Both the position numbers and the translations under genes were made by a program. Of a stretch of DNA of 7,432 bases, positions 1 through 5,724 are shown one piece after another. Origin of the DNA: a virus (Duplodnaviria > Heunggongvirae > Uroviricota > Caudoviricetes); the IMG/VR virus record IMGVR_UViG_2548876951_000007; one strand, written 5' to 3'. Each line of letters begins with the position of its first letter. The stretch's first letter is position 1. Below the pieces are notes generated by a model. That model searched no databases and was not told the DNA's origin. It saw only the letters and a program-made list of their open reading frames with translations.

Positions 1-35
1 CCGGTACCAGAACAGGTCGAAGTAATACCCGCACG

Positions 36-308
36 TTACCTCCAGATGCGTTGCTGATATGTGCGGGACGGACGCGGCGGGCGTTCGGAATAAGGGAGCC
101 TGACGGAAATTATCCAGTGTCGGAAGTCAGGACTGAGGCCTTTCTGAAACTGGTATCCACGTCTGCGGTAATTCTGAATCAGCCACTCGGCCTGTTCTTC
201 AGTGCATTGGTCATGCTGGTACCAGTCATATTTGAATGCGTGAGAGCGCCGTCCGTGTCTGCTGGCAGGGTCGGCATCAGAATTGTGGTGTTTGGTATTG
301 TGCGCCAT
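36..308 (-). CDS. hypothetical protein (about 90 aa from first ATG; track ORF opens at TTG 389)
   Basis: Minus-strand ORF with protein-like composition. The track start at 387-389 is TTG and lies inside the U-tract of the terminator at 381-406, so the first in-frame ATG (306-308) is the more plausible start, though its SD is weak (GAGA). No motif recognised. Confidence 0.3.
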   Translation of the reverse strand: MAHNTKHHNSDADPASRHGRRSHAFKYDWYQHDQCTEEQAEWLIQNYRRRGYQFQKGLSPDFRHWIISVRLPYSERPPRPSRTYQQRIWR

Positions 309-380
309 CGGTTGTCTCTGCTGGCGCAGCAGGTGCCAGTTGTTCAGGCTGGCGTGTGGATTGTAAACCAGAACGCCAGG

Positions 381-406
381 AAAAAACAAAACCCGCGAAG
401 CGGGTT
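381..406 (-). terminator. Rho-independent terminator downstream of the restriction endonuclease gene
   Basis: Forward 390-406 AACCCGCGAAGCGGGTT forms a perfect 7-bp GC-rich stem with a 3-nt loop. On the minus strand it is followed directly by UUUUGUUUUUU (forward 381-389), about 75 nt after the REase stop at 479-481. Confidence 0.6.
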
Positions 407-478
407 AGTAAAAATGTACTGAAGTCAATGACGTGCCATCACAGTTAAAATATGACAGACTCTATTTACGTAGAGATG

Positions 479-1357
479 TCAGACTGCAAGATCCAAGGGA
501 AGATCAGAAATATCCTTTAATCTTTTACCATTAACCATCACGGAAAGCATGTCAGCTGCATCGCTGAGCCCCAGTATTTCAACTGCTGATATAAGTTCAT
601 AAAGCGCAAAATGATACACGCAATCTATATCACCAGTACCAAGAGCAATAGACGCCAGACGACTTGGAGTAGGCTCAGCAGTAACAACCATTACATGAGG
701 GAGATTTCCCTTACGGTTGCGAATAAGATTTAATGCCTCAGAACGAGCATTCTGGGCCCGGTCGCTTCTTATTGTCCATTTGCAGGAAATACTTGCGTGT
801 AATATTGGTTTCCCACCATTCGAACTCCTGAGAGCTGACATGCGGGTAACAGAATCATCCACCAGTAATTCAGGACTGTTGATAACTTGATCACATTCAG
901 GTTCTCTTTCAACAATAATATCTGGTGAAATCGTATAATCACTCCCCAGTGCAGCAGCTAGCTGAGGATTACTTTTTGCAGCACTATCCAATGCTATAAG
1001 ATGGGCATATTGTTCATATTTAGCTATCTCTAATCTGTTTCTACCAGAAACCTGATGTACATTCCATTTTCCAGGGCGTAAGTGGCTGAGTTTAAAAAAG
1101 GTTTTTTCTATAAACTCTGCGCAGATACTCTCAAACTGATTACCAGATGTTTGCCCTGCAACACGTTCACCAATCGTTTCAGCCTGCAAGAAGCGAGCAA
1201 TTTCTCTTGCTATAGCTTTACTGTTTTTGTTACTGCTATCTGCGTTACTAACAACTCCGGCAGTATTAATTGTGAGCGTATTCAGTAACAATTGGGCATG
1301 AAACTCCTTTCTGGCTTCAGCAAAACCAACTATGCTGTCAACCAAATCTCCATTCAT
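479..1357 (-). CDS. Type II restriction endonuclease, NgoMIV/Cfr10I/Bse634I-like family (CCGG-core recognition expected)
   Basis: 292-aa ORF from ATG 1355-1357 (M46 of the track ORF), with AGGA about 9 nt upstream and starting 13 nt after the MTase stop. Contains SPDIIV (PD) and HASISCKW (S-x-K) followed by RSDRAQNARSE, which I recall as the variant PD...SxK active site of the NgoMIV/Cfr10I fold. The track start at 1492 would overlap the MTase gene by 120 nt and is less likely. Confidence 0.7.
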   Translation of the reverse strand: MNGDLVDSIVGFAEARKEFHAQLLLNTLTINTAGVVSNADSSNKNSKAIAREIARFLQAETIGERVAGQTSGNQFESICAEFIEKTFFKLSHLRPGKWNVHQVSGRNRLEIAKYEQYAHLIALDSAAKSNPQLAAALGSDYTISPDIIVEREPECDQVINSPELLVDDSVTRMSALRSSNGGKPILHASISCKWTIRSDRAQNARSEALNLIRNRKGNLPHVMVVTAEPTPSRLASIALGTGDIDCVYHFALYELISAVEILGLSDAADMLSVMVNGKRLKDISDLPLDLAV

Positions 1358-1370
1358 TTCTGGATTTCCT

Positions 1371-2495
1371 TCAGGCTGCTTGACTATTCTTACTGATGTT
1401 ATTCTTATACCGTCCCTGCAAAACTCCATACACATATTGTGCGATTTTTGCTGCAAATAGCGGTGGAACAGCATTCCCGATCTGCTTTGCAATCTCAGTT
1501 TTTGAACCGGTAAAAATGAAATTATCAGGAAAAGACATTAATCTCGCTGCCTCACGATGAGTTATTGGCCGATCCTCTTCCGGATGTAAATATCGCCCTT
1601 TCTCCGGTTTGAAAAACTCAGTACGAATCGTTACTGAAGGTCTGTCCCACCACAGACGTCCAAACAAATCGGTCCCTCCAGATTTCTTTTTTAGCCAGCA
1701 CGCCGGGGTTATATCAGGTCTTTTTTTCTGTAAATCGAAACGGTTACCTCCTGGTGGAACCGCTTTATATCGCTCCAGAGAAACAGGTGTGGGATTACGC
1801 CCAAAATGTAAGTTCAGCGGAGGAAGTTCATTACGAATATCAGTTCCAACAGGAGCAGGTAAGTCACCAATTGCATCACGCGTACAGACCCATTCAGGCA
1901 AAGCGACATCCTTATCAGGGGAACGATGCGTTGGTGCTGGCGGGAACGCCGGAATACTATGCACATCGAAGAGTTCTCGTTTGATACCGATTGCTATCGT
2001 TCGTTTTCTTGTCTGAGGTACTCCATAGTCAGCAGTATTCAACACCATTGGATTAAGCAGAATAAAGCCCATGGATTTCGCTCTAAACGTAATGTCCGCA
2101 AACTCATCGCTTATCAGCAATCCGGGGACATTTTCCATGACGAACATACAAGCCCTTGAACGCTCAATGACATCCATATAAGGCTCCCACAATGCTCTTC
2201 GGTGATCACCATAACGATTCTTATTCAATAAACTGAATCCCTGACACGGGGGGCCACCTATGACCACATCAGCCTCAGGAACAGTATTGCTGGATGCCCA
2301 CTCCTCAATATTTGCCTGAACTCCATGCAAACCAAAATTGGCATTGTAGGTATTTATAGCTGCAGCATTATTATCAATAGCAAGGATACTTTCAAAGTAG
2401 TCAGACATCTCTCCATGAAGAAAACCATAAGATAATCCACCTGCCCCACAAAAGAGGTCTATCACTCTGAATTTATTTAATTCTTTCATCCGCAT
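1371..2495 (-). CDS. DNA (cytosine-5)-methyltransferase, Type II R-M modification subunit
   Basis: 374 aa with canonical C5-MTase motifs in order: motif I DLFCGAGGLSYGF, motif IV GGPPCQGFS, motif VI ENVPGL, motif VIII VPQTRKRTIAIG, motif X QIGNAVPP. GAGG about 8 nt upstream of ATG 2495. Confidence 0.9.
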   Translation of the reverse strand: MRMKELNKFRVIDLFCGAGGLSYGFLHGEMSDYFESILAIDNNAAAINTYNANFGLHGVQANIEEWASSNTVPEADVVIGGPPCQGFSLLNKNRYGDHRRALWEPYMDVIERSRACMFVMENVPGLLISDEFADITFRAKSMGFILLNPMVLNTADYGVPQTRKRTIAIGIKRELFDVHSIPAFPPAPTHRSPDKDVALPEWVCTRDAIGDLPAPVGTDIRNELPPLNLHFGRNPTPVSLERYKAVPPGGNRFDLQKKRPDITPACWLKKKSGGTDLFGRLWWDRPSVTIRTEFFKPEKGRYLHPEEDRPITHREAARLMSFPDNFIFTGSKTEIAKQIGNAVPPLFAAKIAQYVYGVLQGRYKNNISKNSQAA

Positions 2496-2578
2496 CCATA
2501 TGCCTCAGATTAATGTTGAGCGTCTTACAGGACGCGTAATGTTAACTGGGGCTTTCTCTATCTGCCTTTTGGTGTTCA

Positions 2579-2603
2579 TGCCTGAGGCAGACAGCCTCAG
2601 GCA
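2579..2603 (-). promoter_or_regulatory. 9-bp-stem perfect palindrome (TGCCTGAGG-N7-CCTCAGGCA) between the QueH-like and MTase genes; operator or leader hairpin
   Basis: Seen directly in the sequence. No U-tract follows on either strand, so it is not a canonical intrinsic terminator. It sits immediately downstream of the candidate promoter at 2613-2641. Confidence 0.35.
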
Positions 2604-2612
2604 CCCGCAGCA

Positions 2613-2641
2613 ATTCTACTTAACTCACGTCACCTCGCCAA
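2613..2641 (-). promoter_or_regulatory. candidate sigma70 promoter for the MTase/REase genes
   Basis: On the minus strand: TTGGCG (forward 2636-2641), a 17-nt spacer, then TAGAAT (forward 2613-2618). Consensus match only, no experimental support. Confidence 0.3.
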
Positions 2642-2673
2642 TATGAAATCAATCAGAAAGGTGATCCATAAAA

Positions 2674-3360
2674 TCACTCCTTCTCTTCTTTTCCGTAGTG
2701 GAGTTGGCCAATTTTGATAAGAGGGCGTCCCTGAGATTTGCGGTGTAGATTGGTATCGCGCAGAGAATACACACAGCCACAATATTCCTGCTGATAGAAT
2801 TTTTCGCGCTTGCTGATTTCAATCATACGGGACGAGCCGCCCTGCTTGCGCCAGTTATAATCCCAGTACACCATACCCGGATAATGCGCAACAGCTCGCC
2901 GCCCACACTCGTTAATCTGCTGCATATTTTTCCAGCGTGAAATGCCCAGTGAACTGCTGATCACACTGAAACCATTTTCAGCAGCGTACAACGCTGTCCG
3001 CTCAAAACGCATGTCAAAACACATGGTACAACGGATCCCCCTCTCAGGCTCCCATTCCATTCCTTTGGCACGTTCAAACCAGTTGTCGGTGTCGTAATCA
3101 GCATCGATAAACGGCACGCCGTGTTGTTCAGCAAAGCGAATATTTTCATCCTTACGAATTAAATACTCTTTCTGAGGATGAATGTTCGGGTTGTAGAAAA
3201 AGATGGTGTAGTCGATTCCCGAGGCCTGAAGCGCCTCCATCACTTCACCGGAACATGGAGCACAGCAAGAGTGCAGTAGTAGTTTGTTTGCCCCGTTTGG
3301 GAGCTCCAATTTAGGCCGTTTGAAATCAGCAATAGTCATAAATATTTTTATTGGGGTCAT
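2674..3360 (-). CDS. queH: QueH-like (DUF208) epoxyqueuosine reductase family protein, putative Fe-S enzyme
   Basis: 228-aa ORF with an N-terminal [11 protein letters not shown] motif, a central [10 protein letters not shown] and a C-terminal EYCGCVYS. This Cys pattern matches what I recall of the QueH/DUF208 family. The start is uncertain: neither ATG 3360 nor ATG 3339 has a clear SD. Confidence 0.55.
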
Positions 3361-3513: not shown

Positions 3514-3939
3514 CTAGTAACGTCTAAAATACCTAACATTTCCTTGATAAAATGCCAGTACACGCTGCATAGCTTCGCTCTTCCGGCACTCGCGACAGAT
3601 TATGTTTAGGCGCCTGTCGTAGCGGCGTATTTCGCCGTCTGGTAATAGCCAGATAAGGTCCGGATCAACCACAGATGGTTTCTTCAGCTTTGCCCTTGAG
3701 AGTTTTTTGCGGGCGTTTTGCCAGTCCTTGCGCGCCTGCTCAGACGGGAATACTCCGTAACCGGAATTGTAAACATCACCACTGGCGGCCAGCTCCATGC
3801 ATAAACGACCGACAGACGCATGACTGACACCAATTTCATCCGATAACTGCCGAATCGTGCCTCGTCCGTTAAGGCGTACGAATTCCACGATCAGCCCTTT
3901 AATTTTTTCCCGCTCTTCTTGTGTAAAAACTTTTGCCAC
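3514..3939 (-). CDS. HTH-domain protein, function unknown (sits where a helicase loader is expected)
   Basis: 141-aa ORF starting at GTG 3937-3939, preceded by a strong SD (AGGAGGG, about 4 nt spacer), 38 nt downstream of the upstream replication-gene stop. Predicted HTH around TIRQLSDEIGVSHASVGRL; basic C-terminus. No DnaC/P-like Walker motifs. Confidence 0.5.
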   Translation of the reverse strand: MAKVFTQEEREKIKGLIVEFVRLNGRGTIRQLSDEIGVSHASVGRLCMELAASGDVYNSGYGVFPSEQARKDWQNARKKLSRAKLKKPSVVDPDLIWLLPDGEIRRYDRRLNIICRECRKSEAMQRVLAFYQGNVRYFRRY

Positions 3940-3979
3940 AAGCCCTCCTGAAAATTACCTCATGACCAGAAATTAACAC

Positions 3980-4942
3980 TTACCCCCTGAAGCCCGGCGG
4001 AATTTCAGTGTCCGGTTCAGAAATGTGATTCACGCAACGCTGCGCAGGTGAACGCCCCAGGCGGATAACCAGTTCATCCCATTTTTCCCGGAGTTTTGCC
4101 GGACTCATGATGTTTTTTACCCAGAACGAATCCCGCTGGAGACGCCCAAACATTTCACAAATTTGTCTGTGAGTTCTGCCATCCAGCATCCGCATTGTGC
4201 GAACGTCATTGGCCCATGCTGTCCAGTTGGGTTCTTTCGGTCTAGTGATCTCGCCATCATCGCTGGCCGCCTGCTCGTAAAGACTCACGATTCGTCCCCA
4301 GATCCACTGTGCGCACACCAAATCTTCCTGACTTCCCCACTGGCGTTTTTTCGCACTGAACACAACCGCGTCAGGGTGTCGGGTTAAAAAATCCTGTTCA
4401 GCCATCTGCGGGTCCGGTTGCGAAGCGTCCGGACAAGAAGATCTTTTATCTGACGGATCAGGTTTTAATACTGACGGATCGGGGTCAATCATCGCCCCCC
4501 TAATCGGCAGTTTTTTATCAACAGTTGATCCATCAAAATTTAACGGGTCAACCGTTGAGGGGTCAATATTTGACGGGTCAACTGTTAACGGGTCATTTTT
4601 TGCCGGGCTAATTTTTCTTTTCGGTTTATATGACTCACGCGCCGCCGCCGCAGCTGCTTCGAGTTTTTCCACATTAAGCCGATAGATATTGCTTACATTA
4701 CGCCCACCGACCTTACGCTCTTCCTTCGTCAGCCAGCCCTCTTTCGCCAGTTCTGCAATAGCCGATTTCACTGTGGATTCACTTCTTGCACCGATCTGAC
4801 GCCGGATAGTTTCAATGGCAGGCCATGACACGCCCTCGTCATTGCTGTAGTCTGCAAGACGGGCCATAACCGCCACCCTGGATAAGATCATGCCGGTGAA
4901 GGCGCACCCTTCCCAGACAAGACCATGAAGCTTGCTGCTCAT
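3980..4942 (-). CDS. phage replication initiation protein (O-like / YdaU-position), N-terminal winged-helix domain
   Basis: About 320 aa from ATG 4940-4942 (the track start at 4957 is GTG). The N-terminal segment WPAIETIRRQIGARSESTVKSAIAELAKEGWLTKEER resembles the HTH of phage/plasmid replication initiators. The central low-complexity VDP-repeat linker is encoded by the tandem 15-bp iterons. It lies immediately downstream of the YdaT-like gene, as in Rac. Confidence 0.6.
   Translation of the reverse strand: MSSKLHGLVWEGCAFTGMILSRVAVMARLADYSNDEGVSWPAIETIRRQIGARSESTVKSAIAELAKEGWLTKEERKVGGRNVSNIYRLNVEKLEAAAAAARESYKPKRKISPAKNDPLTVDPSNIDPSTVDPLNFDGSTVDKKLPIRGAMIDPDPSVLKPDPSDKRSSCPDASQPDPQMAEQDFLTRHPDAVVFSAKKRQWGSQEDLVCAQWIWGRIVSLYEQAASDDGEITRPKEPNWTAWANDVRTMRMLDGRTHRQICEMFGRLQRDSFWVKNIMSPAKLREKWDELVIRLGRSPAQRCVNHISEPDTEIPPGFRG
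4541..4615. repeat. five tandem 15-bp iterons (consensus about TRACGGGTCAAnnnT) inside the replication gene; putative origin
   Basis: GGGTCA/GGGCTA cores start at 4545, 4560, 4575, 4590 and 4605, an exact 15-bp period. A degenerate copy lies at 4481-4489. The adjacent 4505-4540 stretch is AT-rich and 4440-4530 holds four GATC sites. Confidence 0.6.
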
Positions 4943-4964
4943 AAAACCCCCGAACACCGTGCTT

Positions 4965-5390
4965 TTAGTGCATCACCACAGCATTCCCTGCCGGGCCGCC
5001 GCGATTCATCTGGTCATACAAAACAACCGCTGACGCAACAAAATCATCGACATCCTTCACCAGCCGATCCCTCCGTTCGACGATCTCACGGTAATATTCA
5101 GAACTGTGGCTGCGCATACGGGCCACCAGCAAAGGCGGCATCGCCTTTTCGATCGCCGGTAACAGAGCCTGCATTTTTTCAACAGCATCAGGGGTGTCTT
5201 TATCCAGCCAACGGAAAATTTTCTGGGTATTACGGGCCAGGGCTTCCGGATGGCTGTCGTCGTACAGTTCAGGGAACGTCATCCCCAGTTCGAAATAAGT
5301 CCGGGCTATTTCAGCTGCAGGAACTTTCTCACCATCAGGGTATGCCCAGGCATTCATCGCCATGCGGATGTGCTCATGTTTGATTTTCAT
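4965..5390 (-). CDS. ydaT: YdaT-like prophage protein
   Basis: 141-aa ORF with ATG at 5388-5390, overlapping the upstream Cro-like gene end by 17 nt (translational coupling). Size and position (third gene after the repressor, second in the cro-side operon) match Rac ydaT. Assigned by synteny and recalled similarity, not by search. Confidence 0.55.
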   Translation of the reverse strand: MKIKHEHIRMAMNAWAYPDGEKVPAAEIARTYFELGMTFPELYDDSHPEALARNTQKIFRWLDKDTPDAVEKMQALLPAIEKAMPPLLVARMRSHSSEYYREIVERRDRLVKDVDDFVASAVVLYDQMNRGGPAGNAVVMH

Positions 5391-5697
5391 GAATCATTTG
5401 CCTCTTGATGCTTCGGGTATGATCGTTTTCGTCATTTGGTTGCTTCATCGACATATTCTGCGAATAACATGACGAGCGTCGTAAGTATGTCCAATCAACA
5501 TCAGGACGAAGTTCTTCACACAGGACACCACCTTTTGTTGCTCGTTCAATCGCAGGACATCTCTCAGCAGGTAACTGACGTACACCTTTGATCCATTGAT
5601 TTACGCTTGGAGGAGATACACCTAAAAGCCTAGCCATTGCTGATTGCCCACCGACAACAGCACAAGCTCGTTTGAATGAATAGTTATCTTTTTTCAT
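5374..5697 (-). CDS. ydaS: Cro-like HTH DNA-binding protein (YdaS-like)
   Basis: 107 aa from ATG 5695-5697 with GGAG 10-13 nt upstream; the track start at 5718 is GTG and lies upstream of the predicted transcription start. HTH segment QSAMARLLGVSPPSVNQWIKGVRQLP. Transcribed divergently from the repressor gene. Confidence 0.65.
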   Translation of the reverse strand: MKKDNYSFKRACAVVGGQSAMARLLGVSPPSVNQWIKGVRQLPAERCPAIERATKGGVLCEELRPDVDWTYLRRSSCYSQNMSMKQPNDENDHTRSIKRQMIHENQT

Positions 5698-5724
5698 CGA
5701 ATGAACTCCAAAAAACACGCAACA

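Follow-up and report, generated by a model that had tools for sequence, protein, structure and literature searches.

A prophage restriction–modification cassette in what is very probably the shell of a hok-family toxin locus

The window, by which we mean the whole 7,432-nt stretch of DNA analysed here, is part of a Rac/Qin-like lambdoid prophage of Escherichia coli and carries a conspicuous palindrome upstream of the genes of a restriction–modification (R–M) system. We find that this palindrome is almost certainly the DNA image of the 5′-terminal stem-loop of a hok-family (hokD-type) toxin mRNA, and that the R–M cassette has very probably replaced mok–hok–fbi, so that it now sits within a hok promoter and leader on one side and a hok terminator on the other. 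A preliminary description of this DNA had offered the palindrome as either a repressor-binding operator or an RNA leader hairpin that tunes methyltransferase (M) and endonuclease (R) expression; what it missed is that the element was not built for the R–M system at all, but is the 5′ end of a widespread prophage hok-family mRNA. Our overall reading, which we consider likely, is that of a captured hok shell in which the R–M genes are transcribed from the hok promoter and damped by the leader hairpin.

The palindrome proper spans 2579–2603, corresponding to +4 to +28 of the leader, and consists of perfect 10-nt arms around a 5-nt loop on the minus strand; the 9-bp stem with a seven-nucleotide loop reported previously is the same element. 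It is the sole perfect inverted repeat of at least 8 bp with a 3–10-nt loop in the window, and the RNA stem derived from it comprises 11 pairs (−22.3 kcal/mol; z = −6.0 against shuffles). Among 300 dinucleotide shuffles, a perfect 10-bp inverted repeat arises in 3% and a 9-bp repeat in 18%. Read along the minus strand, TTGGCG (2641..2636) is followed by a 17-nt spacer, TAGAAT (2618..2613), TGCTGC and then GGGTGCCTGAGGCTGTCTGCCTCAGGCATGAA. From the end of the palindrome, 84 nt lead to the first in-frame methyltransferase ATG (2495) and 90 nt to the ATG used by RefSeq (2489), in agreement with the distance of about 85 nt given before. The original observation was therefore correct, and the significance of both palindrome and promoter rests on the comparative evidence that we present below. 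Two other readings of the repeat were set aside along the way: feedback through a recognition site (CCTGAGG/CCTCAGG resembling CCTNAGG or CTNAG), as the endonuclease is a close NgoMIV homologue and the leader is free of GCCGGC or RCCGGY, and a REP element or terminator, as the palindrome has neither a T-tract nor a terminator call.

The identity of the element emerges from an Rfam scan of the window, in which a single match passes its threshold: minus-strand positions 2606..2426 fit RF01794 with 61 bits and E = 5e-12 (gathering score, 59), only about the first 105 model positions truly matching. Applied to intact loci, this model reaches 102–120 bits, with matches that have the orientation of hokD and stop at its ATG. 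By megablast, window 2502–2671 corresponds to a non-coding block that recurs in 3,922 of 5,426 complete E. coli genomes, in up to seven copies per genome, and in 15 isolated lambdoid phages; hokD follows it immediately in each of the five intact loci that we inspected. The first 30 nt of the leader also align with the R1-type hok leader, represented here by a sequence found with 100% identity in 2,660 plasmid records, where it overlaps Hok genes.

What such a leader does is well described for hok mRNA, where tac pairs with the sequence just downstream of it to form a transient metastable hairpin (PMC9841398). It is because tac is held in this hairpin that the nascent mRNA is untranslatable. 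The later partners of tac are the 3′ fbi, which yields the inert full-length mRNA, and ucb, with which it forms the tac-stem of the translatable mRNA; ucb otherwise sequesters the mok Shine–Dalgarno (SD) sequence, which in R1 is GAGG at 105–108 (PMC9841398). The window retains the corresponding parts, namely an above-threshold leader model, the tac hairpin and the competing tac-stem, ucb, the mok SD and the terminator (Table 1). The predicted 260-nt fold pairs the ucb box with the SD region, and the plus strand of the second leader hairpin region (2509..2545) is a remnant of the Sok body and its terminator.

Table 1. Features of the hok-derived shell, the R–M cassette and neighbouring prophage genes, in window coordinates
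Feature	Position	Strand	Basis or context
−35-like hexamer TTGGCG, hok-type promoter	2636..2641	minus	Consensus scan; identical in closest intact hokD loci
−10 hexamer TAGAAT, hok-type promoter	2613..2618	minus	Position conserved across homologues
Inferred +1 of hok-type leader (GGGUGCC...)	2606	minus	First position of Rfam RF01794 match
Leader 5′ hairpin, RNA +3..+29	2578..2604	minus	tac pairs with immediately downstream sequence
Inverted repeat, perfect 10-nt arms TGCCTGAGGC / GCCTCAGGCA	2579-2588 / 2594-2603	minus	5-nt loop
3′ strand of competing tac-stem, AGGCAGAUAG, +40..+49	2558..2567	minus	Rfam consensus structure
ucb / anti-SD box AGCCCCAG	2546..2553	minus	Nearly invariant across homologues; conserved with intact loci
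Second leader hairpin region, part of Sok target in intact loci	2509..2545	minus	Shared with intact hokD loci; Rfam structure
mok Shine–Dalgarno GAGG	2503..2506	minus	Final block conserved with intact loci
Left junction zone, hok leader / R–M cassette	2490..2501	minus	End of homology to intact hokD loci
C-5 cytosine DNA methyltransferase	1371..2495	minus	Pfam PF00145, E = 4e-54
NgoMIV-family type II restriction endonuclease	479..1357	minus	Pfam PF09015, E = 6e-127
hok-type intrinsic terminator AACCCGCTTCGCGGGTT + TTGTTTTTT	381..406	minus	Terminator scan; homologous to intact hokD-locus terminator
QueH, epoxyqueuosine reductase	3360..2674	minus	Early-right operon, directly upstream of hok promoter
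DUF977	3939..3514	minus	Early-right operon
O-like HTH protein	4957..3980	minus	Early-right operon
YdaT	5390..4965	minus	Early-right operon
YdaS-like Cro	5718..5374	minus	Early-right operon

For a comparison unbiased toward the palindrome, 54 hokD/hokC-type loci were fetched by protein, using a two-sequence HokD/HokC alignment, from Escherichia, Shigella, Kluyvera, Pseudocitrobacter, Pantoea, Erwinia and Photorhabdus. Together with eight loci fetched earlier, these gave 62, in 48 of which nhmmer found the leader, and the 36 distinct leaders were aligned. Across this alignment the local hairpin is paired in 97.2% of cells, compared with 31–44% in slid controls, and nine of its 11 pairs vary yet stay paired, one of them changing from U-A to C-G in five sequences. 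The tac-stem (+13..+22 with +40..+49, plus the outer GGG.GCYU/AGCCCC helix) is likewise 94.6% paired in the 36 leaders, the slid controls for hairpin and tac-stem together giving 31–51%, and it shows compensatory A-U to U-A and G-C changes. The two structures are mutually exclusive. Only in the window copy is the palindrome Watson–Crick throughout; 34 of the 35 other distinct leaders carry one to four G·U wobbles. Since G·U pairing is available only to the hok-sense RNA and would count as a mismatch in a symmetric DNA site, RNA structure is favoured over a DNA operator. Of the two possibilities offered in the preliminary description, then, the RNA leader hairpin starting from about +1 is borne out by the RF01794 match and by the conserved pairing, while the repressor operator finds no support.

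The promoter is a more delicate matter, as its consensus score is not above chance: the window holds 10 such sites against 11.7 expected, and the site in question matches 9 of 12 consensus positions. What makes it credible is the conserved placement of its −10 element. In 39 of 40 distinct homologous upstream regions, drawn from Escherichia, Kluyvera, Photorhabdus, Erwinia and Pantoea, exactly 6 nt separate TAnnnT from the conserved GGGYGC start downstream of it, a spacing that supports a real promoter and start site and backs the previously proposed TTGGCG-17-TAGAAT promoter (2641..2613). Unlike the −10, the spacer and the −35 region diverge in distant homologues, and in distant loci the homology detected by nhmmer starts only at the −10 region. 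In the R1-type hok mRNA, the counterpart of the inferred start at 2606 is +1/+2. No other promoter-like site emerges from the consensus scan between queH and the start of the methyltransferase.

Alignment with intact hokD loci shows how the cassette is seated. Approximately 290 nt, comprising mok–hok–fbi, have been swapped for an M+R cassette of about 2.1 kb (about 408–2490/2501), while the hok promoter, the first 105–115 nt of the leader, the mok SD and the hok terminator are kept. The endonuclease encoded by this cassette matches the NgoMIV structure (PDB 1fiu; E = 1e-118). On the left, homology to intact hokD loci stops after CTGAGGC at 2502 or, for copies resembling locus L003 of our set, after ATGCG at 2491; the candidate breakpoint cues, ATGCG (the mok start of L003-like copies) and TGGAT (the RBS region of the Klebsiella cassette described below), are too short to decide between. 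On the right, the junction falls at about 407/408; window 407..1 aligns with an intact hokD locus, beginning just past its fbi and continuing through the terminator into the prophage gene that follows. The RefSeq methyltransferase has 372 aa and its homologues have 369–380 aa, starting at the equivalent of 2489; these data make 2489 the probable native start of the methyltransferase. Two codons before it and in frame with the methylase, the ATG at 2495 has GAGG 7 nt upstream of it and may be the former mok start.

The remaining parts of a hok/sok locus are missing. A tblastn search with HokD detects no Hok ORF in the window, no match to the fbi sequence CCTCAGGCACCC occurs near the terminator with up to three mismatches allowed, and the Sok promoter region of intact loci (putative TTGCCT-17-TAACCT) is replaced. 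Given that toxin, fbi and Sok are absent, we regard the locus as a truncated member of the hok-leader family rather than a functional hok/sok system. No plus-strand promoter-like site was picked up in 2300–3000, including the 5′ coding part of the methylase, by a scan that is insensitive and misses the putative native Sok promoter too. Near the terminator, a weak Rfam 'RyhB' match (383–440, minus strand; 24 bits, E = 0.5) was discarded as an sRNA candidate, as it covers only the hok-type terminator hairpin and its U-tract.

The junction of hok leader and R–M cassette occurs in 60 E. coli genomes, and the 5′ end of the methylase was not found in other E. coli contexts. The R–M carriers are at least 99% identical, and DNA identical to the window is present in O157:H7, O111:H11, O103:H2 and O39:NM strains. 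M+R pairs of 80% identity exist in a Klebsiella prophage and on a Cronobacter chromosome, where they have upstream regions of their own and no hok leader. In the Klebsiella michiganensis-type prophage (L065–L067, 4001–6004), M and an NgoMIV-like R lie between dinI and a LexA_DNA_bind/DUF968/Q block; the pair has its own upstream region of about 460 nt, and the sequence past R resembles the start of the window's downstream gene (GCCTGAACAAC...). This resemblance hints that the cassette was exchanged between lambdoid phages via flanking homology. The literature that we searched held nothing relevant on an R–M operon within a hok shell or on the O157 NgoMIV-type prophage R–M system.

Loss of the toxin is accompanied by a change in how the leader is predicted to fold. 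In the leader of an intact locus (L002), the tac-stem is far more stable than the hairpin (−30.3 versus −19.6 kcal/mol), so that the hairpin is merely metastable. In the window leader, U7C, A15G and a 1-nt deletion bring the hairpin slightly ahead of the tac-stem (−25.1 versus −24.3 kcal/mol). Partition-function folds of 125–260 nt give the hairpin a pair probability of 0.81–0.99 and the tac-stem at most 0.16, with the SD mostly paired, values that shift with the transcript length used. C7 of the window corresponds to T6 of R1, a numbering checked by alignment, and every substitution of R1 T6 abolished Hok toxicity, which the authors attributed to a destabilised tac-stem with the SD kept sequestered (PMC9841398). 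The window leader thus has the counterpart of a mutation that eliminated Hok toxicity in experiments and whose effect was interpreted as a leader locked in its closed state.

This variant is also narrowly distributed. The combination C7+G15 occurs in only 57 genomes, once in each, which is the same number as R–M junctions at 99% identity or more, and the perfect palindrome created by U7C appears confined to R–M-linked copies. Such a link fits adaptation of the leader and drift in a single lineage after the loss of hok equally well. All carriers possibly stem from one recombination event, and the association of palindrome and R–M genes may accordingly be hitch-hiking or drift.

We envision the following mode of action. 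The mRNA of the prophage locus hokW was detected in uninduced lysogens (PMC8621323), and for R1 a weak hok promoter and a highly stable hok mRNA are described (PMC3874152); from these precedents, we infer that R–M transcription in the lysogen could be independent of the repressed early operon. The R–M genes would then be transcribed as a self-contained unit from a weak, constitutive hok promoter, from about 2606 to about 385, with the hairpin as the 5′ end of their mRNA. Loss of fbi together with U7C would make the hairpin the dominant fold, which would free ucb to sequester the SD and would keep translation of the methyltransferase from the mok SD low. The stable 5′ stem-loop would probably also guard the R–M mRNA against decay. 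We lean towards the hok promoter driving M and R in lysogens; whether the hairpin measurably affects M translation or mRNA stability is close to evenly balanced, tipping slightly towards no such effect. Low translation of the methyltransferase is not obviously favourable for an R–M system.

The main alternative concerns function and not identity. The leader could be an inert relic, the debris of a hok locus wrecked by the R–M insertion, with a hairpin that has no effect and with M and R expressed by read-through from the early operon or from an unrecognised internal promoter. We give this a minor but appreciable probability. The window leader differs by five substitutions or indels from otherwise near-invariant intact copies, as expected under relaxed constraint, and the near-identity of all R–M carriers fits a single origin; moreover, the terminator scan places no terminator between queH and the leader, so that read-through of the early-right operon could express M and R during lytic growth without the hok promoter. 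It is harder to reconcile a mere relic with a cassette framed so neatly, the hok promoter and mok SD ahead of it and the hok terminator behind it, with only about 7 nt from the SD to an in-frame ATG at the junction and no further promoter-like site from queH to the methyltransferase start. Lambdoid biology would add that the methylase must balance the restriction enzyme in a lysogen, where the early operon is repressed. These points lead us to prefer the captured, transcribed hok shell.

Two further explanations would give the palindrome a role outside the hok leader, and we hold both to be very improbable. As a DNA operator it would bind a dimeric repressor, be it a C-like protein, the DUF977 protein or the methyltransferase, that controls the adjacent promoter, and a perfect 10-bp palindrome at +4..+28 indeed occupies a typical roadblock position. 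Yet the DNA symmetry is broken and the G·U pairing kept in all but one of the other distinct homologues, and the same element stands at thousands of loci without R–M genes. Nor is a protein partner at hand: consistent with the earlier remark that a classical C protein is absent, Pfam reveals no C-protein-like gene adjoining the R–M genes, and the accompanying suggestion that the methyltransferase might regulate itself finds no support, as the enzyme has no N-terminal DNA-binding extension and the leader no GCCGGC or RCCGGY. Because a textbook RNA element accounts for the palindrome, an operator need no longer be considered. A terminator or attenuator of queH and the early-right operon would account for a stable, GC-rich hairpin 70 nt downstream of the queH stop, but no U-tract follows the stem (the sequence is CAUGAACACC), no T-run occurs after 2578, the scan makes no call, and the hairpin lies downstream of a conserved −10 as part of the hok leader.

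The prophage surroundings offer several observations in their own right. The arrangement of queH and leader occurs in about 731 E. coli genomes, placing a tRNA-modification enzyme within the lambdoid nin-like region. In strain 9000 (NZ_CP018252.2; L001, 10065–13013), the O-like gene and DUF977 are separated by DUF1627 and DnaC-like ATP-binding genes, both of which are missing from window 3514–4957; the window therefore represents a different prophage variant than L001, although the leader/R–M junction is identical in both. At another locus (L063, 358–2114; NZ_CM142765.1), an intact hokD is followed by a two-gene cassette, encoding a 615-nt hypothetical gene and a 1146-nt gene for an HTH-domain protein, whose right boundary coincides with that of the R–M cassette (window about 405). 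This coincidence suggests a recurrent cargo hotspot beside the hok terminator. Another copy of the hok locus (L004, 1907–2980) carries an IS481-family element inside mok, about 45 nt past its start. As for annotation, RF01794 is named 'sok antitoxin', yet its model represents the hok-sense strand and covers the hok mRNA between +1 and the hok start codon; the leader bears no RefSeq annotation in any of the loci that we inspected, and thousands of E. coli genomes carry it in this state.

While the palindrome itself belongs to a familiar class of RNA element, less ordinary is the presence of one post-segregational killing module, the R–M system, in the promoter–leader–terminator shell of another, hok. 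If this shell is functional, it would exemplify how prophage cargo gains lysogen-specific, translationally damped expression. A bolder proposal, which we consider unlikely, is that the hok shell has been co-opted as a working riboregulator of the R–M system, in which the U7C-locked hairpin would set a low, lysogen-specific methylase level via ucb and the SD, and Sok RNAs from sibling hok/sok loci of the same genome might still pair with what is left of their target (+49..+105). Were it true, R–M expression would be tied to the prophage toxin–antitoxin network through these sibling Sok RNAs, and the hok shell of lambdoid prophages would be a site at which addiction or defence cargo can dock repeatedly, as with R–M here, relBE in the Qin prophage of K-12 and the L063 cassette.

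Comparison with known systems places the window closest to hok/sok (parB) of plasmid R1, with which it shares a homologous first stretch of about 30 nt, the same local hairpin and a competing tac-stem with GGCAGAnAG, as well as the AGCCCC ucb box, a GAGG SD about 100 nt from the 5′ end and a −10 placed 6 nt from the start. It departs from R1 in having no mok or hok ORF, fbi or Sok promoter, in carrying an M+R operon as its payload, and in the U7C change, through which the hairpin becomes a perfect palindrome and the tac-stem loses stability. A second comparison is with hokD-type loci of prophages and chromosomes, such as hokD/relF of Qin and hokW–sokW of Sakai prophage 5, which occupy the same lambdoid 'nin-like' place, flanked by the replication genes and DUF968/RusA/Q, but retain the toxin; in the intact hokD loci compared here, the leader is 90–96% identical. 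The Qin locus of K-12 (L005, 4120–4873) is a mirror image of the window: there, relBE has taken the place of the leader to within 14 nt of the hokD ATG, and hokD was kept.

Known means of controlling R–M expression include C-protein operators, the antisense RNAs of EcoRI and Eco29kI, and methylase autoregulation (PMC3874152). The window resembles these controlled systems in possessing a cis element at the 5′ end of the operon that could limit or time expression; it differs in that no C protein, reverse promoter, recognition site or HTH extension was detected and in that the element comes from a type I toxin–antitoxin locus. Systems under C-protein control comprise a small HTH controller gene and a C-box operator upstream of C/R, and no small HTH controller ORF adjoins M or R here. 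Methyltransferases that autoregulate, of the SsoII, EcoRII and MspI type, rely on an N-terminal DNA-binding extension or on a recognition site in the promoter; in our case the methylase domain starts at residue 9 of 374 according to Pfam, GCCGGC does not occur in the window, and RCCGGY does not occur in 2490–2650. Phage morons, finally, are promoter–gene–terminator units inside lambdoid operons, and the window is moron-like in holding cargo with its own promoter and intrinsic terminator within a prophage operon, an arrangement that suits expression in the lysogen. Unlike in morons, the promoter and terminator were not brought by the cargo, whose relatives elsewhere lack them, but were inherited from hok/sok.
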